From: Mobula hypostoma
Lineage: Eukaryota
DNA length: 64,000 bases
Direction: 5' to 3'
NCBI RefSeq assembly: GCF_963921235.1
Contig: NC_086108.1
Location: 90,522,001 to 90,586,000, forward strand
A program made the position numbers and the translations under genes. Below the pieces are notes generated by a model. The model saw nothing but the letters and a program-made list of their open reading frames with translations. It was not told where the DNA came from and searched no databases. Of the stretch, positions 1,973 through 64,000 are shown one piece after another (within the stretch, counting starts at the first letter, position 1; every line of letters starts with the position of its first letter).

Positions 1973-2040
1973 TAATGTGAAAAGCAGCAGATCCGACACC
2001 TAACCCTGCTGAACGCCATTAGCAGCCAAACAGCAAAGAC

Positions 2041-2170
2041 CCTGATGAAGGGTCTCAGCCTGAAATGTCGACTGTACTCTTTTCCGTAGATGCTGCCTGG
2101 CCTGCTGAGTTCCTCCAGCATTTTGTGTGTGTTTCTGGATTTCCAGCATCTGCAGATTTTCTTTTGTTTG
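2041..2170 (+). mobile_element. Short Penelope-like (PLE) terminal-repeat insertion
   Basis: It is the same sequence as the 3' terminus of the RT/GIY-YIG-bearing PLE at 40472-41670 and is inserted inside the CR1. Confidence 0.85.
2042..2074 (+). ncRNA. Minimal type I hammerhead ribozyme core (degenerate)
   Basis: CTGATGA-A-GGGT-CTCA-GCCT-GAA-ATGT-C-GACTG. Both conserved boxes are intact, stem II forms, and the helix III palindrome ACGT has decayed at its CpG. Confidence 0.7.
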
Positions 2171-2290
2171 TGATAAGACCTGCTTTATTCTCTCTCTTTG
2201 CCTCATGCCAGTCAGACAATTTTCTATCATGATATTTCCTGTAATATCATGGGCTCTAATATTATTTAGCAACCTCATCTGCAGCACCTT

Positions 2291-2588: not shown

Positions 2589-3881
2589 CACCTTTTCTAA
2601 AGCTTTCTGAAATTCCAAGTAAAGAACATCCACAGACTCTAATTTGTCTATCCTATCTGTTATTTTCCCAAATAATTCGAACAGATTGATCTGATTGATA
2701 AGGAAATCATGCTGACTTCGGTCTATTTTATCATGTGCCAAAAGTGCCCCAAAACCTCATCCTTAATAATGGACTTCAACACTTTCTCAACCACTGACGT
2801 CAAGCTAGCGCCAATAATATCCTGTCCTTTGTCTCCCTCCCTTCTTAAAGAGTGGAGTGACATTTGCAATTCTCCAGTCCTTTGGAACCATTATACAATC
2901 TAGTGGTTCTTCAACGTTCACTATTGCAGCCGCCACAATCTCTTCAGCTACCTCTCTCAGAACCCTGGGGTATGGTCCATCTGTTCCAGGTGACTTACTT
3001 ACTTTCAAACCGTTCAGCTTCCCAACCAGCTTTTCCTTATTAATGGCAACTACACGCACTTATGCCCCCTGACACTCTTGAATTTTTGGTGTACTGCTGG
3101 TGTCTTACACAGTGTAGATCCGATATAGAATACTTATTAAATTCATCTGTAATTCTTTGTCCCCTTTTACTACCTCAGCAGAGTCATTTTCCAGTGGTCC
3201 AATGTCTATTCTCACCCTTTTACTCTTTATGTAACTGAGAAACATTTTATATCCCTTTATGTTATTGGCTAGCTTTTCTTTATATTTCACCTTTTCTCTT
3301 TTTAATGCTTTTTTAGTTTCCTTCTGTTTGTTTTTAAAAGCTTCCCAATCATCAAACTTCCCAGTAATTTGTGCTATATGTCCACTGTGTAGCATGCTGT
3401 CTTTGCTATGCTGCCTTTGACTTCCTGTGTCAGCCATAGTTGCCTCGTCCTCCTCTTACTTCTCCTTTGGGATGTATCTATCTTGCACTTCCAAATTGCT
3501 CCCAAAAACTCCAGCCATTGATGATGATGCCGCTGTGTCTGCTAGTGTCTCCCTCTCAAACTGTAAGGTGAATTTTACAATATTATGATCACTACCTCCT
3601 AAGGCTTACACTTTCATAAGCTCCCTAATCAAATCTTGTTCATTACACAACATCTAATCCAGAATTGTCATTTCTCCAGTGGGCTCAACAACAAGCTGCT
3701 CTAAAAAGCATCTCAAAGACATGCTACTAATTCCCAATCTACCTGCATATTTAAATCCCCATGACCATGATAACATTGCATTTTTTACATACCTTTTCTC
3801 TCTCCTGTTGTAATTTGTACCCCAGATCCTGGCTACAGTTCAGTGGCCTGTATATAACTCTCATCAATGTCTTTTACCCTT

Positions 3882-4022
3882 GGAAAAGAATAAACAGTTG
3901 ACATTTCTGACCCATTTCGGACTGCTTACTCTTTTCCATAGATGCTGTCTTGCCTGCTGAGTTCCTCCAGCTTTTTGTGTGCGTTGCTTTGGATTTCCAG
4001 CATTTGCAGATTTTCTTGTGTT
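3882..4022 (+). mobile_element. Short PLE terminal-repeat insertion with an inverted 5' segment
   Basis: 3882-3910 is the reverse complement of part of the repeat, followed by a + strand copy. It is flanked by a ~14-15 bp duplication, TGTCTTTT(T)ACCCTT (3868-3881 and 4023-4037). Confidence 0.8.
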
Positions 4023-4878
4023 TGTCTTTTTACCCTTAGAGTTCCTTTATTCTACCCACAAGGATTCTACATCTTCCTGTCCTTTGTCACCTCTTTCTAA
4101 GGATTGGATTTAATTTTTTACCAACAGAGCCACCCCAGCTCTCTGCCTACCTGCCTGTTCTTTCAACACAATGTGTATCCTTGGACGTTAAGGTCCCAAT
4201 GGTGATTTTCTTTCAGCCACAACTCAGTGACATCGTCACGCTTGCCAATTTCTAGCTACTTATCGACCTTAATCCATATGCAGCATGCATTCAAATATAA
4301 CGCCTTCAGTCCTGTATTCACCACCTTATTCTCAACTTGTCTCCATGTTGCCTGATGTTTAATTATTCCACTTTTCTAAACTTTCCATCTTATTCTTTAT
4401 TTTGGAAATTTTATTAACCACTCCTGCACTCTCCTCTTTTACTTTATCCTTACTTTCCCAAGCTGTTGAACTCCCCCCTCCCGTGCCACACCGAACTATA
4501 CTCTTTAGTTTAAAGCTCTATCCATTGCTGTCATTATACAATTTGCCAGGACCCTGATCCCAGCATGGTTCAAGTGAAGCCCATCCCATGAGAACAATTC
4601 CTTCCTTCCCTTACACTGGTGTCAATGTCCATGAGTTCAAACAACTTCTCCCAAACTTCTCCCGCACATTTAACTCTCTGATCTTATTAACATTCAGCTA
4701 CAACACATCACCTGATCCTGCATCCCTACTTTATTTATTTAGTTGTAATTTAGCATTATTTAAAATTTAAGTAATAAAAAAACATGGTGGATATCAGGCA
4801 GCTTATAAACCAGATTCATTTTGTGCTACCATGTATGAAATTTATTGCCACTCCTGCTTCACCAGTATATTTCCAGAC

Positions 4879-8330: not shown

Positions 8331-9639
8331 TTAGGATCTGCTTATCAAAGCTAAACATCTAGTCCTATGAGCTCCAACTGTAACATATGACAATATTCCA
8401 AAATTAGTTGTGGAAATCTCAAAATATTGCCTTATTGTTCATACTTTTCTAATATGACTAGTTGATTAGCCATAAGATATTACATCTTCCTTCTCATGAG
8501 AGTTACAGTTCTATTATGTGGAACACTTAATCATCACTGCCTCTATTTGTTTCACCAAAGTACAAGTTGTTCTGATCATTCAATCCCTTCTTTCACAAAT
8601 AACTTCCACAGAAGTAGAGAGGGTCAAACCTTCGGGGTATTGTCAACACCTGCTGATAAAAGTTCTCTGCAATGATAGAACCATCCAGTTGCTAACAGGG
8701 TTGAACATATGTTTTAGAATTGCTTAACTTATCAGCCATGGAACACAATCTTTTAACATGGTGCAGTATGAGGGAGATGCAATTGTGAATTAGAAGTGAA
8801 ATAATGATCCCAGTTTGAGACTCAGTCTTTCAGTCAGAAGATAGCAATATGTTTAAGAAAATAATAGTTTGAGGAATTGTTTATGCTTGCATAAAAAAGG
8901 AACATGCTAGAAACTTAAACATGGATCCAGATTTTCAGCAAGCTGTATTGGGAAATCTGAAGTGAATTTATACACATTTATGTGTGAGCTTCATTAAAAC
9001 TCTGATTTCTATGCAAATGAAGGAGGTTTACTTAATGGAGTGATTTTTTTTATTTTCTTCATGGGAATGAGCTGTATACTGAGCTTGTCTTTGTTAAGTG
9101 GGTGATGAAAGGCGGTTGTGTTCTTTCCATAAGGGAGTACTTTGCATTGCTGAACTTTTCAGTGTTATAGTTTAAATCATTAAAATGGATTATGCGTCGG
9201 AAGTAGAAGAAAATAAAAAGGTTGATGTGTTTCTTGTAATTCTTATCACTGTGAGAGCTCATGATGACTTGGATAATTCTACTGAGGATGCTAAACTTTT
9301 ACTGAACCTTAAATGCCCTCTGGTTTACTCAATGTACTGAATTTTGAATGATTGTACCCTCTGTCTGAAAATAACGAGGGGTCTTCTGTAATTGTGAACA
9401 ATTTGCAACTCCTCTTTTTATGTTTCTGACTGCGGGGGGGGCTCTTTCCTCAAGTTCTTATACATATGAAACTTCAGGCAAGTTTAATTTAAGGCTCTGA
9501 CTGCTTTCTTCCTGTGATCTTTTTTTAAAAGGACTTTTTTCCAAAAATTGTCAAATTTAGAATTTCCAGTGTCTATCACTGATCCTATTCCTAATCAATA
9601 ATTTTGATCAGCATTAACCATTTCTTACTATAGCATTTG

Positions 9640-10010: not shown

Positions 10011-10211
10011 TTTTAACTTGTATGTCTCATTTATAAATATGTTAATCATTGAATTTGCTCTGCCTAAGTAAGGAAAGATTAGGGAAAAACTTACTTTTTC
10101 CTGATTCTATGATCTGTGATTCTTCTGCTTTCCCACTGTGCACATACAAAGCAAACCAATTTACTTAAATCCATGCCTGAGGTTTCTTTCTTCATACAGC
10201 ATCTTCCACAA

Positions 10212-10640
10212 ACACAAGAGATTCTGCAGATGCTGGCAATCCAGAATAGCACAAAAAAAATTGCTGGAGGAACTCAGCAGGTCAGGCAGCACCTATGGAA
10301 AGGAATAAATATTTGATGTTTTGGGCTGAGACCCCCTTCTTCAGGACTGAGAAAGATGCGAAAAGATGCCAGAATAAAAAAAGTTGGGGTAGGGGAAGAA
10401 GGCTAGATGGAAGGTGATAGGTGAAGCCAGACGGGTGGGAAAAGTCAAGGGCTGGAGAAGAAGGAATCTGATAGGAGAGGAGAGTTGACAATAGGAGGAA
10501 GGGAAGGAGAAGGGGACCTAGGGAGAAGTAATAGGCAGGTGAGAAGAAGTAAAAGGATCTCGGCCTGAAGCATGTACTGTTTATTCTTTTCCATAGATGC
10601 TGCCTGACCTGCTGAGTTCCTTCAGTATTTTGTGTGTGTA
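10212..10640 (-). mobile_element. PLE 3' fragment (minus strand) joined to an inverted terminal repeat (plus strand)
   Basis: The minus copy at 10212-10555 includes a hammerhead core at about 10308-10349, and the plus copy spans 10556-10640. The flanking duplication is TTCCACAA (10204-10211 and 10641-10648). Confidence 0.85.
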
Positions 10641-11163
10641 TTCCACAATCTAGGGAAACGCACTAACTTTTTTTTGGGTGAATGGGAGTACAGTACTGAA
10701 GTCCTAGTGGGAGATGCAGCAAAAGTTTAGTGAGGGACAAGAGAAGACATCTGTGTATGTCAGCTGTTAGAAACAATCTGGCAAAGGCATTGAATACAGC
10801 AGTTTAATATTGTTCAGTAAATATCTGAAGATTGCTCCATCTGGCAACTTTGCATCTGTTATCAATTACAACCTGATTGAGAAATATCCAAGAAACAGTC
10901 AACTATAAAGATAAAGGTACTTCTATCTTGTAATTAAGTAAAAATTTAAAACAAAAACTTATTTCAGGAACAGTGCTGAATTCATCTAATCGTCATCTTC
11001 AGGAAAGGAATTCTACCAAGCTTACCTGATCCAATCAATATGCAAATCTAAACCCACTAATATAGTTGGCTAGATCTACTTTGTGAAATGCCTTACTAAA
11101 TCTTTCCATTCAGATGAAGGACTTTTATTGTACCATTAAAGCAAATAATATAGATTAGTTATA

Positions 11164-11387
11164 ACAATGCACACAAAATGCTGGAGGAGCTCAGCAGGTT
11201 AGCATCTATGGAAAAGAATGAACAGTTGACACTTTGGGCCTAGAGCCTTCTTCAGTCCTGAGGAAGGATTTGGCCCAAAACATTGACTGTTTGTTATTTT
11301 CCATAGATGTTGTCTGGTTTGCCAAGATCTTCTAGCATTTTGTGTGTATTGCTTTGGATTTCCAGCATTTGCAGACGTTCTCGTGTT
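11164..11387. mobile_element. Palindromic head-to-head pair of PLE terminal repeats
   Basis: 11164-11255 is the reverse complement of about 11257-11350. The junction CCTTCTTCAG-TC-CTGAGGAAGG joins two CTGANGA boxes on opposite strands. Confidence 0.85.
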
Positions 11388-11686
11388 TAGATTTTGAATA
11401 AATTACCTTTTGGAAGAAAATATTTTCTATCGTTGACCATGTTGCATACTTCCATGCTTCCAAAATCATTAAAAACCGTAAGAAAAGCATGTTACAAAAT
11501 CATATTTGCCTGCAGATTCAATCATGTAACACATTTTTCACTGTGATGCAACGGAAAAAGTATCTTATTTCCTCTTCTGCAGAGAAGAATGATAACCACC
11601 ATATTCAGTTTTTTTTTGGACACTACTGGAGTCAGTAAAACATTTCCCAATGTAATTTAAACATCTGGGCACTCAATAATCACATA

Positions 11687-12245: not shown

Positions 12246-13564
12246 TATGTTCAATATACTTGACTTCCACTGTGGAATGAACTTCAGAGAATATGTATAG
12301 TACTTTGTCATGAGCACATAGTGAATTCCATGCTCATGACTGGGAATTCATTATTTTTTCTATTTAGAAAATTTTATCTATGCAAGATTTTTCTGTTCTA
12401 ATTGTTAAAATGTTACTTTGGGAATAAAGATTAAACAAGATATGTGTTTTTTTTCAAAAAGACATCTTAAAAACATTAAGAAAACCTGAAAGAAAAACAC
12501 AGAAACTTTTAGAAACACTAACAGGTCTGGTAGCATTGGTGATACTGGTATTGGAATTAGTTTAATATTGTTGCATGTACCAAGATGCAAATGGTTTTGC
12601 AAGTTTTTCACTGAATCTTGGTACATGTGACAATAATAAACCAGAACTGCTGAGTGTTACCAGCATTTTGTGATTTTTGAAATTTTCAGGTTCACTTAAT
12701 GTTGGAAAGAGAAATAGAGCTTTTCATGTCAAAAACTGTTAATCAAAACCAGAGTTGGATTAAAGAGTGGTTGATCATTTCATTGCTTGGATGAAGGGTG
12801 AAGGATCTTGTTTCACCAGTTTTTGTTGCATATATTCAGTGGCAGAAAAATAACAATCAGCTTTCTGATTTGATGATAGGCATGACAATTTAATATAGGA
12901 TTCTTTGAGACTGAGAAATTCCCATTTGTGCATTTAGAAGCTGCACCCGAAAACTAAACTACTAAGCAAGTAAAAGGTGAGTTGGAGCCTAAAGCCTGTC
13001 CTGAGATGATTATTCAGGAATGCCAGATGAGCTTGAAGAACAGTCCTCCTGATGCAAGGTGGATGCAACTAATCAGGAGATTAATGAATTTTAAAACACT
13101 ATTTGTTATAGTAAATTGATCTAAACAAGGCTTTTCGAGAAAAATCGGACATGAAAGATTTGCAAATTATCTGGCTGAATAAATACCTGTCTTGGTAATA
13201 GAACAAAAGGATGGTAATAAGTTGATACAACCTGGGCAATGCTCCTAGTTTGTTGGCTTTCAACTACTTCTACTATAAAGACACAGGTGTAAGATCGATC
13301 ATAGAATGTCCAAAGATATTATTTCCTTTCCCTGTGGAACAGCAACAGTAACTACTCTTCAGTTGTTGGTTTATTGAATGTGAACTTCTTTAGAGAATGC
13401 AGTGCACACAAGGACTGCCATGTTACTGTGAAAATACACTTGTTCTTTTGGAAAATGTTAATGTAGAACTAGTAGCTTCCGTCAGGTGGAATGCAGAGAG
13501 GACAGGTTTTACTTTGTGACATGTTTCAGCTCTTCGTGTTGTTTCTTTCAGTGTAATGGAGAAC

Positions 13565-14900: not shown

Positions 14901-15399
14901 TCTTATGTTATCTTCAATATCCAAATGCTTATTTATTTGGCAGGGCAGGCCTCAGCATGGATCTGCAGGGTCCTTCTGGAAATGAATCCATTCCTTTTCT
15001 CAAATTTGGGACTCTAATCAGAAATGTCAAAGTACCCAATGCTGGTCCAGTTTATTGAATTATTTGGGAAACAGCTTTGTGTTGCTTGTTTCTGCAAAAA
15101 TCACTAAGACTTGTTAGCATGGCCTGAAGCATCTTTGAGATATTGAAGGAAGTAATAGCATCTCTCAAAGATGAGAATAATTCTGGCTGTTCTATTCTGG
15201 CCATAGGATGTGAACTAAGAGGTGGATGAGCAGAGCAGTTTTCACATGCCAATACCCTACCTAAGTGTTTATTTGACCTAGAAAACTTGCCTCCAGCTTT
15301 CAAAGCAGCAGTTTCCCAGAAAATTGACCTTATCCAGGGGGATAGTCACAGGGATGTGGAATTAGAATTGGAAATGGTTTGAAATAACTCAGAAAGTGC

Positions 15400-16104: not shown

Positions 16105-18610
16105 GAACTGTACACAATCTTGTAAGTGTGGTCTCTCAAGTGTGGTGTCACAAGTGCCTTATAGTGCCTCGACATCACATCCCTGCTCTTATCTCTTATA
16201 TTCTATACCTCTAGAAATGAATGCCAACATTGCATTTGTCTTCTGCACCACCGACTCAGCCTGAAGGTTAACCTTTAGGGTATCCTGCATGAGGACTCCC
16301 AAGTCCCTTTGTATCTCTGCATTTTGAATTCTCTCCCCATCTAAATAGTCTGTCTGTTTATTTCTTCCGCCAAGGTGCATGACCATACACTTTCCAACAT
16401 TGTATTTCATTTGCCCATTCCCTTAAACTATCTAAGCCTCTCTGCAGGCTCTGTTTCCTCAACACTACCTGCTCCTCAACCTATCTTTGTATCATTGGCA
16501 AATTTAGCCACAAATCCATTAATCCCATTGTTCAAATCATTGACATACTTCATAAAAAGCAGTGGTCCCAACAGCGACCCCTGTGGAACTCCACTGGTAC
16601 CAGCAACCAGCCAGAATAGGATCCCTTTATTCCCACTCACTGTTTTCTGCCAATCAGCCAATGCTCCATCCACGTTAGTAGCTCCCCTGTAATTCGCTGA
16701 GCTCTTCTCTAGCTAAGCAACCTTACGTGCGGCACATTGTCAAAGGCCTTCTGAAAATCCAAGTACACCACATCTACTGCATCTCCTTTGTCTACTCTGC
16801 TTGTAATTGCCTCAAAGAATTGCTGGAGGTTAGTCAGGCAGGATTTTCCTTTCAGAGAACCATGCTGGCTTTGGCCTATCTTGTCATATGCCTCTGGGTA
16901 TTCTGTAATCTCATCCTGACAACTTCTTAACCACTGATGTCAGGCTAACAGGTCTATAGTTTCCTTTCCACTGCCTCCCACCCTTCTTAAATAGTGGAGT
17001 AACATTTGCAATTCTCCAGTCATCCAGTACAGTGTCAGAATCTATCGATTCTTGAAAGATCATTGTTAATGCCTCTGCACTCTCTCTAGCTGCTTCCCTC
17101 AGAACCCAAGGGTGCATTCCATCACGTTCAGGAGATTTATCCACCCTCAGACCATTAAGCTTCCTGGGCACCTTCTCAGTCATAATTTTCACTGCACATA
17201 CTTCACTTCCTGACACTCTTGAATGTCCGGTATATTGCAGATGTCCACTGTGAAGACTGATGCAAAATACGTATTCAGTTCCTCTGCCATCTCTGCATCT
17301 CTCATTACCATATTTCCAGTGTCATTTTCTATTGGTCCTATATCTACCCTCAACTCTTTTTTACTCTTTATATACATAAAAAAGCTTTTAGTATCTTCTT
17401 TGATATTAGTCACCAGCTTCCTTTCATAATTCATCTTTTCCTTCCTAATGACCTTCTTCATTTGCTTCTGCAAGTTTTTAAAAGCTTCCTAATCCTCTAT
17501 CTTCCCAGAAGCTTTGGTGTCCTTGTATGCCCTTTCTTTCGCTTTTCTTTGGCTCTGATTTCACGTGGTAGTGTCCTTCTTCCATTCGAAAATTTCTTCT
17601 TATTTGGAATATATCTGTCTTGCACTTCTGTCATTTTTTTTTTGCAGAAAATCCAGCCATTGCTGCTCTGTTGTCCTTCCTGCTAGTGTCCCTTTCCAGT
17701 CAACTTTGGCCAGTTCCCCTCTCATGCCATTTTAATTTCCATTATTTCACTGAAATGCCGACACATTGGAATTTAGTTTCTCCTTCTCAAATTTCAAAGT
17801 GAACTTGAACATATTGTGATCACTGTTCCCTAAGTGTTCCTTAAACTTAAGCAATCTTATCACCTCTGGATCATTGTACAACACCCAATCCAGCATAGTT
17901 GATCCCCTAGTGGGCTCAACAACCAGCTGTTCTAAAAAGCCATCCCTTAGACATTCGACAAATTCTCTCTCTTGAGGTCCAGTACTGGCCTGGTTTTCCC
18001 AATCCACTTTCATGTTAAGATCCCCAACTATCATCATGACATTGCCCTTCTGACACGTCTTTTCTTTCTCTTGCTGTAATTTGTAATCCACATCCCAGCT
18101 GCTGTTTGGAGGCCTGTATACAACTGCCATTAGGGTCCTTTTACCCTTGCCATTTCTTAACTCAACCTATAGAGACTCTACACCTTCTGATCCTATGTCA
18201 TCCCTTTCTAATGATTTAATATTATTTCGTACACACAGGGCCACACCACCCCCTCTGCCTACCAACCTATCTTTTCGATACACAGTATATCCTTGGATGT
18301 TCAGCTCCCAATGGCAGCCTTCCTTTAGCCAAGTTTCAGAGATGACCACAATATCATACTTGCCAATCTGTAGCTGAATTCCAAGATCATCTATTTTATT
18401 TCTTATGCTGCGTGCATTCAAATATAACACTTTCAATCCAGTATTTGTTGCTTTCTGTTTTAAATCATCCCACTGGCTGTGATTATGCCTCATCTCCTGC
18501 TTGTCCTTCCTGTCATCTCTGTTGCACGCTATCTTTGGTTTACTTCTGTTTTCCCCTTCCTCAGCTCTCATCCCCCTGCTAAATTATTTTAGACCCTCCC
18601 TAGCGCTCCC
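16105..18610 (-). mobile_element. CR1 LINE with most of ORF2 (AP endonuclease and RT), frameshifted and lacking the 3' end
   Basis: Encodes KVLYLNARSIRNK..DIVVISETWL..YRKDRLVGRGGGVAL, VVYRPPN..VGDLN..LGNSDHN, DWRIANVTPLFKKG..NYRPVSLTS and SGVPQGSLLGPLLF..KFAND. Confidence 0.95.
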
Positions 18611-19184: not shown

Positions 19185-20200
19185 CCATAGAACCATAGAA
19201 ACTACAGCACAGAAACAGGCCTTTTGGCCCTTCCTGGCTGTGCCGAACCATTTTCTGCCTAGTCCCACTGACCTGCACACGGACCATATCCCTCCATACA
19301 CCTCCCATCAATGTATCTGTCCAATTTATTCTTAAATGTTAAAAAAGAACCCGCATTTATCACCTCGTCTGGCAGATCATTCCATACTCCCACCACTCTC
19401 TGTGTGAAGAAGCTCCCCCTAATGTTCCCTTCAAACTTTGCCCCCCTCACCCTTAACCCATGTCCTCTGGTTTTTTTTCTCCCCTTGCCTCAGTGGAAAA
19501 AGCCTGCTTGCATTCACTCTATCTATACCCATCATAATTTTATATACCTCTATCAAATCTCCCCTCATTCTTCTACGCTCCAGGGAATAAAGTCCTAACC
19601 TATTCAACCTTTCTCTGTAACTGAGTTTCTCAAGTCCTGGCAACAACCTTGTAAACCTTCTCTGCACTCTTTCAACCTTATTTATATCCTTCCTGTAATT
19701 TGGTGACCAAAACTGAACACAATACTCCAGATTCGGCCTCACCAATGTCTTATACAACCTCATCATAACATTCCAGCTCTTATACTCAATACTTTGATTA
19801 ATAAAGGCCAATGTACCAAAAGCTCTCTTTACAACCCTATCTACCTGTGATGCCACTTTTAGGGAATTTTGTATCTGTATTCCTAGATCCCTCTGTTCCA
19901 CTGTACTCCTCAGTGCCTTACCATTAACCCTGTATGTTCTACCTTGGTTTGTCCTTCCAACGTGCAATACCTTACACTTGTCTGCACTAAACTCCATCTG
20001 CCATTTTTCAGCCCATTTTTCCAGCTGGTCCAAGTCCCTCTGCAGGCTCTGAAAACCTTCCTCGCTGTCTACTACACCTCCAAACTTTGTATCATCAGCA
20101 AATTTGCTGATCCAATTTACCAGATTATCATCCAGATCATTGATATAGATGACAAATAACAATGGACCCAGCACTAATCCCTGTGGCACACCACTAGTCA
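19185..20200 (-). mobile_element. Young 5'-truncated CR1 with a largely open RT C-terminal frame, nested in an older CR1 3' end (about 19075-20300)
   Basis: ORF 19431-20273 reads VTSGVPQG.VLGPLLFVIYINDLD..KFADDTK..LVRPNLEYCVQFWSP..RRMRGDLIEVYK. The tail CCATAGAACCATAGAA is at about 19185. Confidence 0.95.
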
Positions 20201-20892: not shown

Positions 20893-20980
20893 CAGGTCTT
20901 AGCCCAAAAAGTTGACTGTTTATTCCCCTCCATAGATGTTGCTTGACCGGCTGAGTTCCTCCAGCAACTTTTGTGCATTG
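20893..20980 (+). mobile_element. Short PLE terminal-repeat insertion
   Basis: GGTCTTAGCCCAAAAAGTTGACTG..GCTGAGTTCCTCCAGCA, flanked by TTGAGCA (20886-20892 and 20981-20987). Confidence 0.8.
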
Positions 20981-21281
20981 TTGAGCATGTCTGAATGTGT
21001 ATGAGCAGTCCATTCCCTTTGCATACATTATTAAAGCAAAGAAGAAGGTACTTGGCCCCTTGTATCTATGCTAGTTCTTCTTAAACCTTATGACAAAATT
21101 AGCTGTAACAGAGAACTTACAATTTGCTTTGAATTCCCGAATATTTAAAGTCACCGAATAAAAATTGTATTTCCCTGTGCAAACAGTCATACCAAGAAGC
21201 ATGCTTGTAAAAAGTAATTCTCCCTAATACAGTACCTAGTATCAACAATAATTTTGTGACAAATATACAAAGAACATTAGA

Positions 21282-27890: not shown

Positions 27891-28028
27891 TACACAATTC
27901 ATTCATGTGGTGAGTTCCACATTTTCACCAATCTTTAGGCAATGAAGTTTCCTTTGAATCCTCACTAGATATGCTCTTACTTAGAATTGGAAACATTCTC
28001 TCTGCAGACAATAAAAACACTCCATTAA

Positions 28029-28117
28029 GTGTCTTAGCCCGAAACCCCAATTCATTATTCCTTTCCGTAGATGCTGCCTGGCTTGCTGAGTTCATCCAGC
28101 ATTTTGTTTGTGTTGCT
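28029..28117 (+). mobile_element. Short PLE terminal-repeat fragment
   Basis: GTCTTAGCCCGAAAC..GTAGATGCTGCCTGGCTTGCTGAGTTCATCCAGCATTTTG. Confidence 0.8.
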
Positions 28118-31427: not shown

Positions 31428-33544
31428 TATGCCATCTGGCCCTTTGACTTATTCTCCTTAATGCTTTTCAGTGGACCCAGCACTACCTCCTCTTTAAGCT
31501 CAAAATGTCTCAGCACATTAGCATGCCCCACTCTACATTCACTATCCTCTAATTCCCTCTCCTCAGTAAATACCAGTACAAAGTATTCGTTTAGTAACTC
31601 AGCTACTTGCTCCAACTCCAAGCACAAATAGTCTCCTTCATCCTTAGTTATCCTGTTCTTAATGTAAACATAAAATACCTTGTTTGACAGCAGCTTCTCC
31701 TAATCTACACCGCTTAGATTCTCCCTGATCCTGCTCACCAAGTACATCCAAGGCTCCTTCTGCCTTTCTAATTACCTGCTTGAGCACTTCCTGCTTTCTT
31801 TATATTCTGCAAGGGCCCTGTCTGAATTCAGCTTCCTAAACCTTATCTATGCTTTCTTTTCCTTCCCGATTAAATTTAGGATTCCTGGGTCACCCGAGGT
31901 TCCCTTACCTCTCCATCTTTGTCCTTAGATCTTACTGGAACATATCGATCCTGAACTCTGATCAGCTGGTCTTTAAACACTCCTACTTATCAGACGCAGG
32001 CTTGTCAGACAGCAGCTGACCCTAATCTATACCCCTTAAGTCCTGACTTATCCTGCCAAAATTTTTCCTCCCTCAGTTCAGTACCTTCTCACAAAATCTG
32101 ATTTTACTCATCTTTACTCATCGCATTGTGTTTTACCATATTTATGTGTACCTTTACTCATAAATATTATGAAACATCATGAGTTATGATCACTATTCCC
32201 AAAATGTTCACCCAGTAACAGGTCTGCCACCTGACTCATTTTCCAAAACTTTTCTCCTTTAGTTGGACTCTCCACATACTGTTTCAGGAACCCCTCTTGG
32301 ATGTGCCGAAGAAATCCTGTCCCATCTAAACCACTTGCATTAAGAAAGTTCCAATCAAGACTGGGGAAGTTGAAGCTCCCTACAATGACAATCCGATCAT
32401 TGCTGCATCTTTTCGTTATCTGACTACATATCTGTTCCTCCACCTCTTAGTGGCTATTGGAAATCTATGTAACCCCAACAGCATAATTAAGCCTTTCTTA
32501 TTTTGGATCTCCACTCAGACTATCTCCACAGTTGAGCCCTTCAGCGTATCTTCCCTGAGTACTACTGTGACATCCTCAATTACCAGTAGTGCAACCCCTC
32601 CACTACTTCTCTCCTCTGACAACAAAGCCTAGCAATGCTGAGCTGCCAGTCTTGTCTCTCATGCAACCAGGTCTCTGTAATGGTAACAACATCACAATTC
32701 ATTGCACTGATCCAGGCTCTGTTCATCCTCCAAACCCATAGTACTCCCAACATTGAAATAAATGTATTTCAGCCCACCGTGTTTTATAGACTCCCCTTTG
32801 ATGTCTTTCCTTTAAGTCTTACTTGCCATACTATTTCTCTTGCCCTCATCCCTACCACCTGATGCCCTGTGCTATGCTCCTGCCACCCTAGTTTAAATCC
32901 TCCCAAATATCCCAGCAAGGATATAAATTCCCTTCTGTTTCAGGTGCAGACCATCTTGTTTGTATAGGTCCTACCTACCCTGGAAGAGTGCACAATGATC
33001 CACAACTCTGAAGCCCTCCTTCCTGAAACCATGCATTATAAAAATGAGTGTATATATTGCATCATTAATTATCTACAGAAAAATATGTACCATGTTCCAT
33101 CTACATAAGGACAGAATATACATGGTGTGTTTTCCTGTCGCTGACCCTATGTGCAAAGCCAAAGCTACCTCAGAATGGACCCACTCTAGGTATGTGATAA
33201 ATATGGCAGTATTTTGAGCCTTTACTATCCTTTCAGTTGGTACGTTCTAGATTCTGTCACTCACCTCTTGACTCCCCTTTCTATTAGTTAACTTCACTCT
33301 ATTATTAAAAACAGTATGTTGAAAACAACCTGCAAATCCAGCAGCATCTATGGAAAGGGAAACAAAGTTAAAACTTCAGCAGGTCAACAATCCTTTGTTA
33401 GAATTTTAATCTATTCCCACAGTTATTAACATCTCTTTATTGTAAATAGGTATTTCCTGCCATGATTTTATATACCTTCAAAGCTCAGAGCTCACATTAG
33501 TTAAATATTCTCTATTTTTCCAAAATGAAGGAAAACAATCATAT

Positions 33545-34600: not shown

Positions 34601-35038
34601 AGTACTGCCCTCCAGGCCCTTCTTATAACAATATTTCTTCAGTACTGGCAACATCTGCTGCATCAGCATTCACTTTTGCGCTATTGTATCCTACCCTGTG
34701 TTGTGGTGCTCAGTACCCATTGTTGTAGCTGTTTCCATGCCTTAGCCAATAAATTAAAGTTTTCAATTTGCCCTCTGAGCCTCCTCCTTCACAAGCAATA
34801 CTTGGAGTGAGGATAAAGGACCTGTATTGTGCTGTAGGTTTTCTATGTTTCTATGTTCTATGTTTCTATGACTTGGTTCCACCACAATGAAGTATAAAAG
34901 CTATCTGTCTGGCCTCTCTTAATAGGAAAACCTTCTCACCATGGGAATTGCCCTGGGTGAATCTCCTTCAAACTATCACTAATGCCAATATATGCTTTTT
35001 TTAACGTAAGAGGATCAAAACTGCATAACATTCCAAGT

Positions 35039-35130
35039 CCTGCTGAAAGATCTAGGCCCAAAACGTCGACTGTACTCTTTTCCGTGGATGCTGCCTGGCC
35101 TGCTGAGTTCCTCTAGCATTTTGTGTGTGT
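35039..35130 (+). mobile_element. 92-bp PLE terminal-repeat insertion with a 17-bp TSD
   Basis: TGCATAACATTCCAAGT (35022-35038) and TGCATAATATTCCAAGT (35131-35147) flank it. It retains the ACGT-C-GACTG of the hammerhead. Confidence 0.9.
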
Positions 35131-35504
35131 TGCATAATATTCCAAGTGTGGCATTACCAATCCCCTGTGCAACCATAACCAAACCACCCAATTCATAAAC
35201 TCCAATCCCTTTGTAACTATCTGAAATGTCATTTGTTTTCATTACTTTTTACATCTAACTGCTATTTTAGATTTATGTACTAAACTGCTCAGCTCTCTTT
35301 CAGCTTCACTCCAATGCAACTTCTCTCTATTTATAATATAATCATCTACCATTTTATTTCCACTGGTACATGACTGAATTCCCCCCCCCACCACACACTC
35401 CTTCTCCTCTCAATTCTCTACCTGCTAGCCTCATTCTCTTGCATGTCTGAAACCCCTAGGCCACATTTAGTTGTTTCTGTGGATCATTTACAAGCATAAT
35501 CGCG

Positions 35505-35561: not shown

Positions 35562-37034
35562 GTGCAAAGCATGCATATACAGTCGCATGCATTTTAACTG
35601 AATTTTCAAAGCTCAATGTTGTAATGTATGTTCTAACGCAGGAGTTTATTGATAGACTTCAAGTAAACATTACTTATCATTATAATTCTTCACCCTGTTC
35701 CTACTCTGACCTTCCTTCCCTCAGTCACCAATTTTGTTCAAAAGAATCTGAATTGTATCTCAAGAAATTGTACTGGATTTCTTAACTGGACATCTTAAAG
35801 CCTTAAGGAATCCTACCTCATCTACATTTTCTGCTACTCTTCAGAGATTTCTAGAAGTTGACTTCCAGATTCCTCTGTTCCTCTGCACTTCTTGGTATTA
35901 TATAGGAACATACAAATTAGGAAGAGGATTACATCATTCATCCTGTCAAGCGTGCTCTACAACTTAATAACATTATCACTGATGTAATTATAATCTTGAC
36001 TCAGTATTCACATTATTATTCATGTCTCCAGTATGCAAGGCATCTTTTTTTTAAGGGAAAAAGAAATAAAAGAACTGGCACCTTAGAAATGGGTGGTCTA
36101 CGATGGTAGAGGTCATTTACAGTCTTACATCTAAGGGGACCATCACTAAACAAACAGTGGAGGGTGAGTTCAATACGTTGGATCTTTGGAAGGCAAAAGA
36201 GGGAACATACACTGATCTCCAGAGATGCACATTTTTTAATGGATTTCAAGGAAATTCTGGAAGAGTACCAGCAACAAATGAAAGGCAACACAGCCAGTGA
36301 GAATATAGATGCATATTATTGCACAGTCCCTCTCTGTATTCCATTCTCGGTAGCATAACCTTTTATTAGATATTTATAACACTAAAAATGTTAGTTGCTC
36401 TAGCTATTTATTTTTGGCTAAGAACCGCACTTTTGAAAAGTAACCCTCTTCTACAAATAACATGATAGACCAGTACGTATATTAAAAGTGACAACTTAAT
36501 TTACTGAGTGCTTGTGGTATAGACCTTCACTATGCTGTTTTTAATGCTAAACCCCTGTGGTTCTTGTGCTATTCATAAATGATGCTTTACCAAGGAGCGT
36601 TGAGTGATTATTGAGCCAACTAATGAGTGGCTAGTGATTCAGAAAGCCTCCAACTCATGACAAGTCCTAACTCTGATGTATTCATGTGCGTGCCTTTATT
36701 GTCAGGTGCAGTTGTTGCACTGGGCTCATTCTTTTGTTACAGTGCATGCATCCACTTATGCATAGTTGTGTAGCCTTCTGCAGCCTTTATGTTACTGGGG
36801 ACAAAGGGAGCTGATCCATTGGGAGGGCCCTTGTGTAATAATCCTGTGAATTATTTGCTTTGATGCCTTCCATATTCATCTTGGGTGATTGTTTTCTCAC
36901 TATGCCACTTGCCATTTTGGGTGTTTGAGATGGAACTCTGCTAAATCAAGGTGAGGTAGTGAAAATAAATGGTACTTACCCGTGAGTACACTCTCACTTA
37001 TTAACCCAGGTTCTGCAGGTACTTGAATTCTTAA

Positions 37035-37360
37035 GATGCTAGAGGAATTCAGCAAGTCAGACAGCATTTATGGAGGGGAGTGAACAATTGAATTTTTGAG
37101 CTGACACCCTTCATCAAAGCTAGAAAGGAAGGGGGCAGAAGAGAATGACCTCATCTTCCCACCACTCTACACATCCCATCCCAATTGCTCGCTTTCCTCT
37201 TCCAACCCTTCTCCTCTCAATTCTCTAGCTGGTGGCCAGAATAAGGAGGTGGGGGAGGGGAAAGGGTGGAAGATAGCAGGTGATTGATGAGACCAGGTGA
37301 GTGGAAGGTAGGTGACCAGTGAGAGGGAATGTGAGCGACCAGGTGAGGGAGAAGGTGCTC
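37035..37360 (-). mobile_element. Degenerate PLE 3' fragment
   Basis: ATGCTAGAGGAATTCAGCAAGTCAGACAGCAT..GCTGACACCCTTCATCA..GCCAGAATAAGGAGGTGGGGGAGGGG. Confidence 0.75.
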
Positions 37361-40471: not shown

Positions 40472-41670
40472 TTCCATTCTCAAGCTCTCAAGCTCTTCAA
40501 CACACTCTATAGGCTCTTGATGTACTCAACAACTCCCGATTCCCTGGCACTGACTGTTGCATTTTTACTATGGGTGTCCAGTCCCTAAACATATCTGTTT
40601 CCTATCAAGAAGCCTTAAAGCTCTCCGCTTCTTTCTCGACAAAAGACCCTATCAGTTCCTGTCCATCACCAAACCCCTCCATCTGGCAGAACTGGCCCTT
40701 ACCCTCATAATTTTGCATATAACTTCTTTCACTTTCTCCAAACTCAAAGTATAGCCATTGCCAGTCGCATGGGTCCCAGCTTTGCCCCAGAAGTCCTCTG
40801 CAACTCCTGCCATCTTCAGCAGGGATCCTAACATCAAGCACATCTTTCTTTACATCCCAACCAACCTCCCCCCAGCCCACTGACTCTCTGCTTTCTTCAG
40901 GGGTGCAGGGATCAGTCCGCCTGTGATTCACGTGTACTCATCTCTCCCCACTAATCTCCCTCCTGCCACTTAGCCCTGCAAGTGAGAGAGATGCTACACC
41001 GGCCCATTAACCTCCTACTTCACCTCCAGTCAGGGTCATTAACAGTTCTATCAGGTGAGGCAACACTTCAGCTGCAAATCTGTTGGGGTTGTTTATTGTA
41101 TCTGGCAGCCTCCTCTACACTGGTGAGACCCACTGTAAATTGGGGGACCACTTTGTCAAGCACCTCTGCTCCATCCACGAAAAGTGGAATTTCCTGGTGG
41201 CCAACCATAATACCTATCCCACGATGATCCTCTTCTACCACGACGTACCTACCATCACATTCTGTCTAGGTATCCTCCCACCTGATGGCATGAACATTGA
41301 TTTCTCCTTCTGGTAATGTTTTTCTCTTTTTTTTTCTTTTCCCCTCCCTTTCCCTCCTCTTCTATTCTCCACTTTGGCCTCTCACCTCTTCTCCTTGCTT
41401 GACTTATCACCTCCCGCTGGTGCCCTTCATTCTTCCTTTTCTTCCATGGTCCACTCTGCTCTCCTATCAGCTCCCTTCTTCTCCAACCCACCTGGCTTCA
41501 CCTATCATCTTCTAGCTTCTCTTCGTTCACCTCCTCCCATTTTTTTTTCTGGCATCTTCCCCCTTCCTTTCCAGTGCTGATGAAGGGTCTCAGCCTGAAA
41601 CTTTGTCTGTTTATTCGTTTTCATAGATGCTATCTGACCAGCTGAGTTCCTCCAGCATTTTGCATCTATT
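40472..41670 (+). mobile_element. Penelope-like retroelement fragment: RT remnant, GIY-YIG remnant and terminal repeat with hammerhead
   Basis: RT-like IFTMGVQSL..LKALRFFLDKRP and IAIASRMGPSFA are present, as is GIY-YIG-like VGVVYCIW..LLYTGET..LGDHFVKH. The TSD is ACATAGAATAC (40461-40471) / ACACAGAATAC (41671-41681). Confidence 0.9.
41572..41609 (+). ncRNA. Minimal hammerhead ribozyme core (degenerate) in a PLE terminal repeat
   Basis: CAGTG-CTGATGA-A-GGGT-CTCA-GCCT-GAA-ACTT-T-GTCTG. Confidence 0.6.
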
Positions 41671-44560: not shown

Positions 44561-45414
44561 TAAACACATGAAAGTCTCCAGATGCTGGAAATCCAAAGCA
44601 ACACACAAAAAATCCTGGAGGAACTCAGCAGGTCGGGCAGCATCTGTGGAAATGAATAGACCTGGGGGGAGTAATAGACAGGTGAGAAGAGGTAAAAAGC
44701 TAGAATGCGGAATAGAGGAAAAGAGGGGTGGGGTGTATTTATTTTACTGGAAGAAGAAATCGATATCCATGCCATCACTTTTGAGACTACTCAGATGGAA
44801 TATAAGGTGTTGCTCTAGCACCCTGAGGGTGACCTCATCTTGGCATAAGACGAGGCCATGGACCAACAAGTGAGAATGGGGATGGGAATCAGAATTAAAA
44901 TGTTTGGCCACTGGAAGTCCTGTTTGTGGCGAATGGTGCAATGGTGCTCAAAGAAGCAGTCACTCAATTTATGAGGGGTCTCACCAGTGAAGAGGAGGCC
45001 ACATTGGGAGCACCACATGCAATAGACAACCCCAGCAGATTCACAGGTGAAGTGTTGCCTCTCCTGGAAGGACTGCCTGGGGGCTCTGAATGGCGATGCG
45101 GGAGGAGGTGTATGGGTAGGTGTAGCACTTAGGTCGCTTGCAGGGATAGTTAAATCCCCCCCACCTTCCTCTGTTCCCCATTTTGACCTTTTACCTCTTC
45201 TCACATGCCTATTACTCCACCCTTGGTCCCCTCCTCCCCGTTTCACCTATTGTCCACTCTCCTTTCCTATCAGATTCCTTCTTCTCCAGCCCTTGACCTT
45301 TCCCACCCATCTGGCTTCACCTTTCACCTTCCAGCTCATCTCCTTCCCCTCCCCCCACCTTTTTATTCTGGCATCTTCCCCTTTCCTTCTCAGTCCTGAA
45401 GAGGTGTCTCTGCC
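44561..45414 (-). mobile_element. PLE GIY-YIG fragment (minus strand) with an inverted terminal repeat (plus strand, 45155-45414)
   Basis: ORF 44815-45246 reads FRAPRQSFQERQHFTCESAGVVYCMWCSQCGLLFTGET..LSDCFFEH. The plus-strand repeat is cut within the hammerhead (CAGTCCTGAAGA at 45391) by a CR1. Confidence 0.9.
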
Positions 45415-54853: not shown

Positions 54854-57769
54854 GACATTTTAATCCATCGCAGTACAGTGGATGGTGTCTTGGTTAGAGG
54901 TATGGCTCAGAATAGATAAAAATGTCAAAGATATCTTGACAAAGGACCTAATCCACTGACTTCCAGAATTAGTCAAATTGGGGCAAGTGAGAGGCAGCCA
55001 TTCTTTTCGCAGGAGGCAACTTGGCATGTTGGTAGACTAATAAAAGGAACAGTCTCTTGGCTAGTGATGAGTGACCGAATTTCCAAGCATCTATTAACCC
55101 TATAGCTGTGGCAGGAAGGGAACAGGTTTTTGGAGCAGGCGATAGCACTCATAGGCACTTCCTTTAACCAAGGGAAGAGTTGGAGACAGTTACTTTTCTC
55201 CTATACTTTTCCCTCCCTCAACCTCTTCTCCTTGCAATAGAGTCCTGTCTCCTGAGGCAGGTGTCAGAGTCATAGAATCACAGTGCGACTACATTGAAAC
55301 AGGCCCTTCAACCCAACTCCTCCATGCTGTCCAAGAATTTGATATAAGCTATTCCCATTTACCTGTGTTTAGCCCACATCTCTCTAAACTTCCCTGTGCA
55401 TGTTCCTATCTAAACATCAGAGCTAACTAATCCCCTGCCATATGCCAGATTATCTTCTGCTAGTCTCAAAGCAAAACTTATCAAAACAATTGACTTCTAA
55501 TCATTGAACAGAAGTGTACAGACTCCAAAGTAAAATTGAAGCCTTGGCTTCCTGGTTTTCTGCCTCATTCCTCAACTAAGTGTGTGATGCACACTTGTAA
55601 ATATCTAGAGCATCTTCCAGCTTTATCCACACTACAAAGTAAGTTTCCTTTTTGGCATTAAGCATAATTATAATAGAAGCTTTAAGGGATTGAAGTAATT
55701 AATTTGAGAGGTCGAAGCTGTCAGGAATTAACACAATAATACAATCATTTAAAGTTGCAAATTATTTGGACTGCTTGATCTGTGTGTTCATTTTTTAACA
55801 TGAAACACAGTTTTTAAAAGTTTTTTGTATGTTTTAGGAAATCACTTTATCCCCCATGAGGTCTTGGAATGTGCCTTAATCTTTTGGTATTGGTTAAATG
55901 TAATTTATGTCCTGTGTAGAGATAAAAGTGCCAGATGTAGTTAAGCCAATGTTGGGCATCCTGTAAATAATGTATTGTGTAGAGTCAGAAAGCTATCATT
56001 TAAAGAGCAATAAATGAAAATGTGAACGTTATAACCAGATTATTCTGTACTTGGAAGGCTTTTGTGCATCATGTCTCTGAGGTCTTCAGGGATCAAAGGA
56101 TATCGAGCACCATGTAACAGCTGTCTTATATTTGAAAGAAAACTGTGGTTGTGATAAGTAACGTAGTGAGCCTGAAGACAGAAACCTCCCAGACCATTGT
56201 TGGCATGGTGTGGTTAGACCACAACTCTGAGGTCGGCAGATGGGAGAAGAGCTTAAGGTGTTATTGAGAGTGGAAAGTAATGATAATTTATTTTACTGCA
56301 CCAAGTCAATCATTTCACATGATTACTTTCAGACCAGTATATGTGGAAATGTTTTTTTTTCACCTTCCCCCAGAGTACCTTTTTGGATGAAATAAATTCT
56401 CTGGACAAATCTAATAATAACCTTTAACAAAGCAGATAGGTTCAAAGAGATGTTGACTGGATGGTTGCATAGGGATCAGTGTCAGTGGGTTAAGGAGCTG
56501 TTGCTCATCTTAGTTTAACACCAGTGAAATGATCCAGTATATTAAAAATAATCATGAATGCTGCAATGCAAAATAAACATCTCTTTATTCCACAATGCAG
56601 TTGAGTGTTGTGTATTTAATATTTCAATAATATTTTAGTAATCTTGTACATATGTTAATTATGCATTCTTGTATGTTTAAATAATTTATTACAGGTTAGA
56701 TGTAAAAATACATTAATTGCATATTCCTTCATGCTACCATGTGATTATGTGCATACCTCACTTAAAGGAAAGACGAAGGTACACCCATATTTCAGACTCT
56801 CATCTTCTTTGGATCAGTTTAATGTTTTGAATTTACAGAACATAACGGGGTGGGTGAAATTTTATTAAATTAATGATTTGAAATATATACATTATGCTGA
56901 CCACAAAATGTTTGCAAATGCACCTTTTTTATATTGCATGTCAGTCATGGATGTACACATTTTAGAGGTTCTGTTCCAACCTAATGCATTTTATACGTTG
57001 TTTAAAATTCAAGACTGTTACAGTTTCCAACAAAATAAATTTCTGATGGTTGTTTGATAAACAAGGCCTTATTTCCAGCATGGATAGAACTTCTAGAACT
57101 GGATCTTCAACACTGGCAAATAGTTATTGTATTGATTAATGCATTCCAGGTTATTGCATTCCTGCTCCATCTTATTTGCAGAGAATGTCCCTAATGGGAG
57201 CAACACTCAAGCCATTAAAAGCATTCAAACTGTAATCGGTGTAATTTCTTTGAGGCTAATGTCCTGTATACTACATCTAAAAAAGCTGGGCACCCAGGCT
57301 GTATTCACCCAAATATTTTCAGTTGCTCTTCTTAAAAAGCAAAGAGAAAGGATGAAAGGTCCAGATGAAGGGTCTTGACTCGACACTTCGATTGTCCAAG
57401 ACCATGGCTAATTTTTAATCTCACAGCTGCTTGTCTACTGAAAAGCCATCTAGCAGCAGAGGAAGAATACCAGGCTTACCTTAAGCATTTGCTTTCTCTA
57501 TCTGGCTTGAAGTCAAAGACCAAAAGAAATACGTATTTATATTTCTGAGCTGGGAGCTGTTGGGATGTGCAGACTGCTTCTAGATGTGTTGTCACTTGGA
57601 GGGATGACCAACAGTAACTCCCAGACCTCATTTCCCTGGCCAGATATTGTCCCAAAATAGGGAGGCAAGGTTCTATCATGTGGTAAGTCCCAGGGTGGGT
57701 GGTGAGATGAGGTTGATGGTGCAGGGTTCGACTTGGTTTTACTAATTATCACAATGTTATATATAATTA

Positions 57770-62543: not shown

Positions 62544-63129
62544 ATATGTAGAGGAAATACAGTCTTGTAGATCTGCTGCTAATAATCTCTTTCTAAATGC
62601 AGCCTGATTTTAAATTGCGAGGCTCTGCATGGCACAGATTGCTGTCGCATTGTGCGTGTAGCATGCATAGCTCACCCAACATGGCTGAAAAATGCTTTCA
62701 GCAGATGACATGCTTAATCCGATTATGCCAAGAGCATGGAAAATTAACAATGTAGAAACAAAATCAATTATTTACCACTTCCAGGTAAGTAAATTCATTA
62801 AAGTAAGCTCTTGAGCTCAAGTTCTTTGTAAAAATAAAATGTAAATTACCTAATACTTACCAATAACTTACTCACTGATAAGCAACTTACTCAATTACAC
62901 AAGCAACTTCAGTTGCCGAAATCTGGAGCAACAGAAAATCTGCTGGAGGATCTCAGCAAGTCAAGCAGCATCTGTTACAGGGGAAGAAGTTGTTGATGAT
63001 TCGGGAAGAAATGCTGCATCATTGGGCTCATTTTACTTCATTGAAGATATATATATTCCTCAATGCTAGAAAGTTCTTAAAATCCATCTTGTAACTTTAC
63101 TTGTACACCAAAGTAGAAATCAATCCTAT

Positions 63130-63300
63130 TCTTCTATCCTTCCCGTTATCCTCTTTCCCCTCCTCTCACCTTTTTATTCTGGCATCTTCCATCTTTCTTT
63201 CCAGTCCTGAAGAAGGGTCTCGGCCTGAAACATCAGCTGCTTATTCATTTCCATAGATGCCGCCCGACCTGCAGAGTTCCTCCAGCATTTTGTGTGTGTT
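63130..63300 (+). mobile_element. PLE terminal repeat, with a degenerate minus-strand relative at about 62910-63020
   Basis: TTTTATTCTGGCATCTTCC..CCAGTCCTGAAGAAGGGTCTCGGCCTGAAAC..GAGTTCCTCCAGCATTTTGTGTGTG. Confidence 0.9.
63202..63239 (+). ncRNA. Minimal type I hammerhead ribozyme (best-preserved copy in the window)
   Basis: CAGTC-CTGAAGA-A-GGGT-CTCG-GCCT-GAA-ACAT-C-AGCTG. Both boxes and the UC cleavage site are intact, and stems I and II are mostly paired. Confidence 0.7.
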
Positions 63301-64000
63301 GATTCAGAAATCCATTGCTTATGTGATGGAAATTATTCAGAAAGAGTTGCATTAGGAAATCTCCTCGCTTTTGAAACATTTAATTGCATCCTGATGAATG
63401 TTTTTTTTACCTCTTTCACATGTGTGCATTTCATGAAATACTAAATAATTGTACACCTTTATTATTCTATAATTGCACATTAGAATCTGCACAACACTTT
63501 AGTCAGGGGATAACTTATTACCACATTAAAAAAATAGGTCAGTGGTAACGTCACTTGATGATCATCAACCACAAGGGCTTAAAACCTACCCGTCATGCAT
63601 TCCTTAACAGCAGCTGATATTTTACTAGGACTACCTAGGTGCAGCACTAGTGTAATTACCTAGCTGTCAGTGTGATAAGTGGGATTAATGGCGGGCTGAT
63701 GCACTTTAGTCTGCAGAGTGGTTAGAGAATTGCAAGATGGGATTATTATTATAGGTACTTGTCTGTACCAAGGTAATCACAGCAGTGGAAAAATGGCTGC
63801 AATTTACTATAGCATTGCCCTGCCTCATTAACATTTGACATTTTCAACAGCTGTTTATTTGTGAACCTGTTCAATAATAAAGGTAAAACAAATTGGTAAA
63901 GACTTTTACTGAAGTGCTGCTATTGTCTGTATCTTATTACAATGCTACAAAACACAAGTTTAACCAAGACCGGTTACATATTTTGAGTATTGAAACATTC

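Follow-up and report, generated by a model that had tools for sequence, protein, structure and literature searches.

The 64-kb window analysed here, a stretch of 64,000 nucleotides from Mobula hypostoma, is CpG-poor (observed/expected 0.23), and at least 46% of it is repeats. Dispersed through it are copies, whole or partial, of a hammerhead motif and the tail that follows it (Table 1). A profile search with hammerhead and tail returned 15 copies scoring at least 15 in the window and none in the reversed sequence, so the repeat family reported in a preliminary description of this DNA is real and beyond chance; a longer seed profile gave 20 matches, fragments included. The consensus proposed in that description, taken as an exact 34-mer, occurs 1,290 times genome-wide, versus zero for a reversed control. 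An Rfam scan of the window found no hammerhead family at E ≤ 10, as the motif falls below the Rfam models. The positions listed earlier all lie on family members, but some needed correction: 10308 (-) is tail, with the motif there starting at 10347; the copies at 20895 and 28030, both truncated at the 5' end, have no CUGANGA box; and 45391 holds only the 5' half of a hammerhead. The list was also incomplete, having missed copies at 3920 (+), 10552 (+), 44654 (-) and 63021 (-) as well as weak fragments at 12641 and 33378.

Table 1. Copies of the repeat family and other features in the 64-kb window.
Feature	Position	Strand	Description
Focal copy	2040..2171	+	5'-truncated pseudo-LTR end, older subfamily, not intact
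Focal copy, boxes	2042-2048; 2049; 2062-2065	+	CUGAUGA; extra A; GAAA
Focal copy, stem II	2050-2061	+	GGGT/GCCT; 5' strand of stem I lost
Focal copy, helix III	2069/2070 (would-be cleavage site)	+	Helix III broken (ATGT for ACGT); tail to ~2171
Fold-back insertion	3877..4024	mixed	Short inverted piece 3912-3877 (-) and tail 3920-4024 (+), the latter starting near the cleavage site; 10-bp flanking duplication, one mismatch
Inverted pair	10209..10642	mixed	(-): 3'UTR, decayed hammerhead (starts 10347) and tail; (+): truncated partner 10552-10642
Head-to-head pair	11163..11389	both	Decayed hammerhead and tail copies
Weak tail fragment	12641..12675	+	Seed profile, E 0.031
Truncated copy	20894..20982	+	Lacks CUGANGA box
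Truncated copy	28027..28117	+	Lacks CUGANGA box
Weak tail fragment	33331..33378	-	Seed profile, E 0.026
Mini-insertion, ~100 bp	35037..35135	+	Start coincides with the first base of the motif; member of the A6C subfamily with a decayed stem II; target-site duplication matching over 17 nt with one mismatch and overlapping the element ends in part
Decayed copy	37011..37139	-	Hammerhead and tail
Longest remnant	40513..41665	+	Broken RT/linker/GIY-YIG protein pieces 40513-41307, 3'UTR, hammerhead (~41574-41609; core preserved, stems I and III disrupted), tail
Composite remnant	44561..45410	mixed	Tail 44654-44561 (-); broken endonuclease protein piece 45151-44756 (-); 3'UTR and 5' half hammerhead 45247-45410 (+), interrupted by other sequence
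Isolated decayed motif	57357..57397	+	No tail; two core positions broken, each stem II change on one side only
Inverted pair	62898..63304	mixed	Old copy 63021-62898 (-); 3'UTR, hammerhead and tail 63118-63304 (+), with core preserved and stems I and III disrupted
Inverted terminal repeats	48999-50417		114 nt, 72%, around transposase-like frame 49120-49641; presumably a Tc1/mariner-like element
Palindrome, 66 nt	11682-11747		Matches Rfam mir-9256 weakly on either strand (40.9 bits against a cut-off of 80); a probable miniature inverted-repeat element
LINE-type RT/endonuclease fragments	19431-20291, 45840-46801, 16911-18583, 59542-60072		Presumably CR1/L2-like and Rex/Babar-like
Exon-like open frames	9176-9337, 12428-12562, 12958-13116, 15230-15379, 36110-36355	+	Non-repeat sequence; possibly a host gene, no Pfam match at cut-off

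The window copies are ordinary leftovers, decayed and predicted to be inactive. All core bases are kept in 3 of the 15, and core plus all three helices in none; a structural descriptor likewise found no intact motif in the window, in agreement with the earlier statement that no copy is perfect. At the genome-wide density 1.1 intact motifs would be expected per 64 kb, so their absence is unremarkable. The core (CUGANGA, GAAA, UH) together with stems I and II is found genome-wide. A rough rule assigns six of the window copies to each older class and a single one to the young class. Many of the deviations had been put down to CpG decay, and 36 of 78 are indeed CpG transitions, with 47 of 104 CpG sites changed versus 31 of 306 other sites. 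The covariation claimed for stem II of the copy at 57358 does not stand, because both changes are one-sided and the core is broken (CAGATGA, GACA).

The evidence supports reading these repeats as the 3' ends (pseudo-LTRs) of Penelope-like elements (PLEs), with a hammerhead that is of the minimal type I and has a palindromic helix III. This identification, already proposed from the window, is borne out by a whole element with the motif on both sides and by the motif in relatives. A protein search gave 202,140 first-look candidates, of which 150 were scored and 11 of those 150 chosen for their long open frames; at genomic loci, a GIY-YIG C-terminus is encoded upstream of the motif. One locus, L037, holds a whole element in the order motif, about 140 nt, a 1043-codon frame (5736-2605, -), about 295 nt, motif and tail. 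Its motifs, at 5824 and 2311 (-), lie 3,513 bp apart in direct orientation, within a direct repeat of 271 bp at 95%. A second locus, L036, has an uninterrupted frame of 1043 codons (5820-2689, -) with YIDD and lacks the upstream hammerhead, whereas L037 has both pseudo-LTRs but reads YIND. With these two uninterrupted frames, the family looks recently active.

[quoted passage not shown] The pseudo-LTR repeats, the inverted truncated partner and the 30-40-bp tail are also those of a PLE. A DKG motif, a CX4CxxC linker and the motifs GVIY-CxxC-YIG are present in the frame, and the CKRNKCYTC linker and GVIYCVRCSRCGLLYIG occur in all three frames checked, matching the linker and cysteines of Neptune. 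The DKG, the linker and the GIY/YIG cysteines are described as Neptune/Nematis traits in the accessible text of PMC8557442. We consider the element to be Neptune-type, with Neptune rather than Nematis suggested by motifs and host group. The best named relative of its protein is from Chiloscyllium, at 73% identity.

Relatives in metagenomes provide a longer view of the motif. Among the best 80 of 524 loci encoding relatives, 21 have the hammerhead motif of this element on the coding strand; the matches number 22 on the plus strand, 3 on the minus strand and none in shuffles, and 14 of them are located 96-409 nt after the protein match. Three loci that repeated a motif were dropped, leaving a comparison set of 18 distinct relatives and the present element. 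The extra A is found in 17 of these 19 motifs, and G10.1-C11.1 and a palindromic helix III in all 19. Both sides change at six of the seven pair positions, in matches that were selected by a pairing descriptor; since the descriptor demands pairing, the 133 of 133 paired cells are true by construction. The motif and its both-side changes in relatives therefore point to a real and old PLE hammerhead. The test of stem covariation proposed with the preliminary description thus had a split outcome: covariation is seen across distant relatives but not inside the present genome, where none of 11 pairs changes on both sides in 14 chosen copies. All 119 young copies have A at the extra position, and helix III reads ACGT. 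The extra A had been singled out as special, but it is a described trait of PLE motifs (PMC4209133, accessible text). Two further observations concern variants. Metagenome relatives L373-L447 have minimal hammerheads with varied stems and helix III palindromes of 4, 6 or 8 nt, and L196:1493-1640 and L214 (motif on the minus strand) represent a further subfamily with intact motifs, loop II TTCC/TTTC and another tail, in which stems and core are conserved but loop and flanks are variable.

Genome-wide, 59,673 structurally intact motifs were counted as exact pattern matches in 3.48 Gb (control 0), or about one per 58 kb, mostly from the younger subfamily. This supplies the count that had been called for, with the CUGANGA and GAAA boxes kept, and agrees with the suggestion that the genome could hold a very large number of intact-looking motifs. 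An exact tail 33-mer from the young subfamily occurs 57,460 times, and one from older subfamilies 20,282 times. In 24 evenly spaced 10-kb stretches there were 35 copies, 5 of them intact, which scales to approximately 500,000 copies (350,000-700,000) and 72,000 intact ones (24,000-169,000). Median divergence from the class consensus is about 3% for young and 10% for older copies.

Two lineages carry altered motifs. The triplet CCT, which gives G10.1·U11.1, is found in 79 of the first 100 intact motifs listed, in 77 of 119 young copies and in the 3' motifs of all 11 long-frame elements examined, while older lineages and all 18 relatives have G10.1-C11.1. From this distribution, G10.1·U11.1 appears to be a fixed trait of the youngest lineage, beyond mere decay. 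An A6C pattern has 727 matches; of 30 such loci, 18 belong to an older subfamily and 12 are young copies. Position 6 is C in 15 of 23 unselected copies of that older class, and coding sequence lies directly upstream in 5 of the 18 older A6C loci. A natural A6C hammerhead is reported to cleave at less than 0.1 per minute (PMC3088659, accessible text), and G10.1·U11.1 would be expected to weaken the ribozyme. The lineages that amplified carry changes that are likely weakening ones.

To describe copy ends, we number the first base after GUC as 0; the G of the GTC before the CUGANGA box, which is the motif's first base, is then -31. Sampled copies were all anchored on the tail or on a pattern past the cleavage site, and those ending at the cleavage site are thus uncounted. 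Among 155 young tail-anchored copies, excluding loci picked for motif or junction, 94 end at +48 to +75, 61 at +93 to +114 and none between. These two clusters, about 35 nt apart, place the ends about 66 or 102 nt beyond the cleavage site, and they match the two internal start sites and the 30-40-bp tail of the anole element Poseidon, as described in the accessible text of PMC11167929. We propose that reverse transcription starts at two internal tail sites (+66 or +102) on RNA that is uncut at the hammerhead.

The 5' ends pile up at one place. Of 95 short copies, 28 start at -35 to -28, a density of 3.5 starts per base versus 0.57 at -13 to 0 and 0.93 at -49 to -36; an inverted partner lies beside 46 of the 95, and five of ten clean direct insertions among them start at exactly -31. 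Junctions were also counted genome-wide at five positions, with patterns that demand three foreign bases before the element and are of unequal stringency: 206 at -41, 146 at -37, 2,457 at -31, 420 at -17 and 490 at 0. After division by chance factors, -31 exceeds the other positions by approximately 6.5 to 14 times, a ratio to be read with that unequal stringency in mind. Among 30 loci at -31, ten are clean minis with 11-15-bp duplications and 12 join an inverted partner. The script had marked 13 clean minis, from which L268, L273 and L277 were dropped as their duplication matches lie far from the junction. Seven of the ten abut the duplication with no extra base or G. By comparison, 5' ends at GUC|GAC provide no fossil of cleavage in vivo, with 490 junctions versus 420 at the control position and no clean direct insertion in 30 loci. 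As a separate observation, L052 and L091 share a near-identical insertion and flanks, which suggests segmental duplication on contig C1.

Several candidates for the -31 boundary were set aside. An initiator-like TCAGTT lies 5-6 nt upstream, yet there is no pile-up at -37. For an extra G derived from a cap, a G does precede about half of the first 100 listed -31 matches, but among the 30 loci inspected it mostly accompanied inverted partners. As for a second cut at UUA|GUC, stems I and III would not pair, and the triplet is absent in older lineages.

Our main reading, to which we assign a probability of roughly 0.8, is that the copies are decayed, 5'-truncated 3' ends of Neptune-type PLEs, with a hammerhead that would act only as a dimer and likely only with the aid of the element's protein, that insertion would use uncut RNA as template, and that the ribozyme would have a role in the element's own cycle. 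Long copies with random truncation would arise from priming on the 3' pseudo-LTR, and synthesis primed on the 5' pseudo-LTR would run to the -31 boundary and give minis of 100-135 bp and inverted partners. The boundary itself is most likely the RNA 5' end (a transcription start) or else one set by protein or structure. A transcription start is our first guess, held at somewhat below even odds, with cDNA snap-back and a protein footprint as its rivals. Penelope of D. virilis has an internal promoter in its pseudo-LTR, although this does not fix position -31 (PMC2377424, accessible text).

A by-product of cDNA folding would account for the same pile-up with no RNA end at all: once both strands of stem I are copied, the cDNA would snap back and the RT drop off or switch template. 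The 12 loci at -31 with inverted partners, the joining of one copy (L064) to its partner in stem I register and the breadth of the peak over -35 to -28 would all be expected from it. However, stem I is only 3-5 bp, and half of the clean direct minis (5 of 10) start at exactly -31 although the young stem reaches -33. We regard this as a possible but rather unlikely origin of the boundary. Placed about as low, and offered tentatively, is a fuller scheme built on a transcription start. Transcripts would begin at the hammerhead's first base and the motif would be a protein-gated switch at the 5' end, its core locked (GACG:CGUC); uncut RNA primed 100-135 nt downstream would shed thousands of SINE-like minis, and the ribozyme would have grown weaker in successive lineages (first A6C, later G10.1·U11.1) even as these multiplied to tens of thousands of copies. 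If this were true, the genome would be a very large natural dataset in which PLE hammerhead cleavage lies off the insertion path.

The minis could instead form a separate non-autonomous family, SINE- or retrozyme-like, with its own master genes. Their sharp start, 11-15-bp duplications and 100-135-bp length would suit such a family. Against it, the diagnostic bases and both tail lengths are common to long copies in similar proportions, with a subfamily mix of 14/7/5 in minis versus 27/17/7 in long copies. Non-LTR retrozymes are defined by tandem units that each hold a hammerhead, and such tandems are rare here; no such array is present in the window, and of 30 loci examined among 210 junction matches, two were true head-to-tail tandems. 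We consider a separate family improbable.

The model put forward by Cervera and de la Peña, in which elements move as unit-length RNA that the ribozyme has cut and that is then circularised, deserves somewhat more weight but also seems unlikely. In that model the RT passes the ligated site, and a ligated circle also allows copies through the cleavage site. The motifs do flank the unit in direct orientation and the core is conserved over deep time. However, a circle has no end at -31, which leaves the pile-up unexplained; linear cut RNA left no footprint at position 0; and lineages with likely weakening changes amplified strongly. In Poseidon of Anolis carolinensis, moreover, cleavage needed protein and ribozyme mutants left insertion in vitro unaffected, according to the accessible text of Frangieh et al. 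2024 (PMC11167929). A point against our main reading is the long-term conservation of the core, which argues for cleavage being of importance at some step. In the main reading, the ribozyme would most likely act at a regulated point in the RNA cycle of the element itself, where unit-length RNA is trimmed or circularised, and the scattered copies would be passengers with little effect on host transcripts.

A wider role had been suggested, in which intact sense-strand copies in introns would pair within one pre-mRNA and cleave host transcripts with appreciable frequency. The numbers offer some opportunity: with 59,673 intact motifs, 58% would have an intact same-strand neighbour within 50 kb on either side (Poisson), as do 60 of 100 listed copies, and Xenopus retrozymes are depleted in introns according to the accessible part of a preprint (10.64898/2026.07.22.740005). 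However, none of the 15 window copies is intact, and folding disfavours the active dimer. In calculations that ignore core tertiary contacts, it is predicted at -12.7 to -21.9 kcal/mol versus -31.3 to -36.5 kcal/mol for competing dimers, 9-19 kcal/mol above the competing folds and so not the ground state. In the predicted fold of the young monomer, GACG of the core is paired with the CGUC that lies at the cleavage site. Close tandems are rare, and the inverted partner would mask the 46 short copies that have one. At distances of 4-100 kb, intact neighbours in the same orientation show no depletion (94 same-strand versus 103 opposite), a weak test made on the first 100 listed matches on contig C1, 4.5 Mb unannotated. 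A helix III of 4 bp would presumably need to form across kilobases before splicing, and published activity is low (PMC4209133) or protein-dependent (PMC11167929) in the accessible texts. Latent cleavage of host pre-mRNA is unsupported rather than refuted, and we judge it very improbable. The predicted folding would fit a protein-gated ribozyme. The two true tandems, L354 and L365, have hammerhead and tail units about 105-110 bp apart and are candidates for a cis dimer assay. As for host genes in the window, none of the 18 frames scanned, out of 235 candidates, reached a Pfam cut-off.

For the role of the hammerhead in PLEs, this genome provides tens of thousands of young insertions with countable ends. 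The association of PLEs with hammerheads was already known, as were the extra A, the ACGU palindrome and solo copies scattered through genomes; the genome-wide junction counts at five positions and the two altered lineages are added here. Our literature search found no paper on the -31 pile-up or on PLE hammerheads of sharks and rays, although Lünse et al. (RNA Biol 14:1499) may list shark or ray motifs in their supplements; the accessible part of the 2026 preprint counts retrozymes in one chondrichthyan (10.64898/2026.07.22.740005).

The minimal hammerheads described by Cervera and de la Peña 2014 (PMC4209133, accessible text for all that follows) resemble the present ones in the core boxes, the extra base between 9 and 10.1, the palindromic 15.2-16.2 (ACGU) and the motif in both pseudo-LTRs. 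They also comprise thousands of solo motifs from truncated elements and close opposite-strand pairs, and showed low activity even as dimers. The present element differs in its shorter stem II (4 bp) in its dominant young lineage with G10.1·U11.1, where a highly conserved G-C was reported, and in an older lineage with A6C; no shark or ray is named among the hosts there. The count of 59,673 compares with about 4,000 motifs for coelacanth and about 9,000 for Xenopus tropicalis, by different descriptors. Axolotl has 126,247 type I motifs (PMC7229834, accessible text), so the present count is dense but no record. Animal non-LTR retrozymes (PMC7229834; 10.64898/2026.07.22.740005; accessible parts) share short non-coding units and PLE-related type I hammerheads, but they form tandem arrays (PMC7229834), whereas copies here are solo or in inverted pairs and tandems are rare.

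Within PLEs, the element resembles the Neptune clade, as described in the accessible text of Craig et al. 2021 (PMC8557442), in its single ORF with RT and C-terminal GIY-YIG, DKG and CX2-5CxxC linker, as well as in the cysteines between GIY and YIG, the pseudo-LTRs, the inverted 5'-truncated partner and the 30-40-bp tail. Poseidon belongs to another clade (PMC11167929, accessible text, here and below), and its hammerhead overlaps the start codon, whereas in the present element the first in-frame ATG of the long frame follows the cleavage site by about 140 nt. A 5' pile-up at the motif's first base is seen here and is not reported for Poseidon in that text. The two elements are alike in having two 3' ends, given by two internal RT start sites (proposed ones in the present element), with no ends at the cleavage site. 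For Poseidon, the template in vitro was mainly uncut RNA, and the cleavage site showed no RNA ends. The missing footprint of cut RNA, the sharp boundary at -31 and the amplification of lineages with a probably weaker ribozyme support that uncut-RNA template from the side of the genome.
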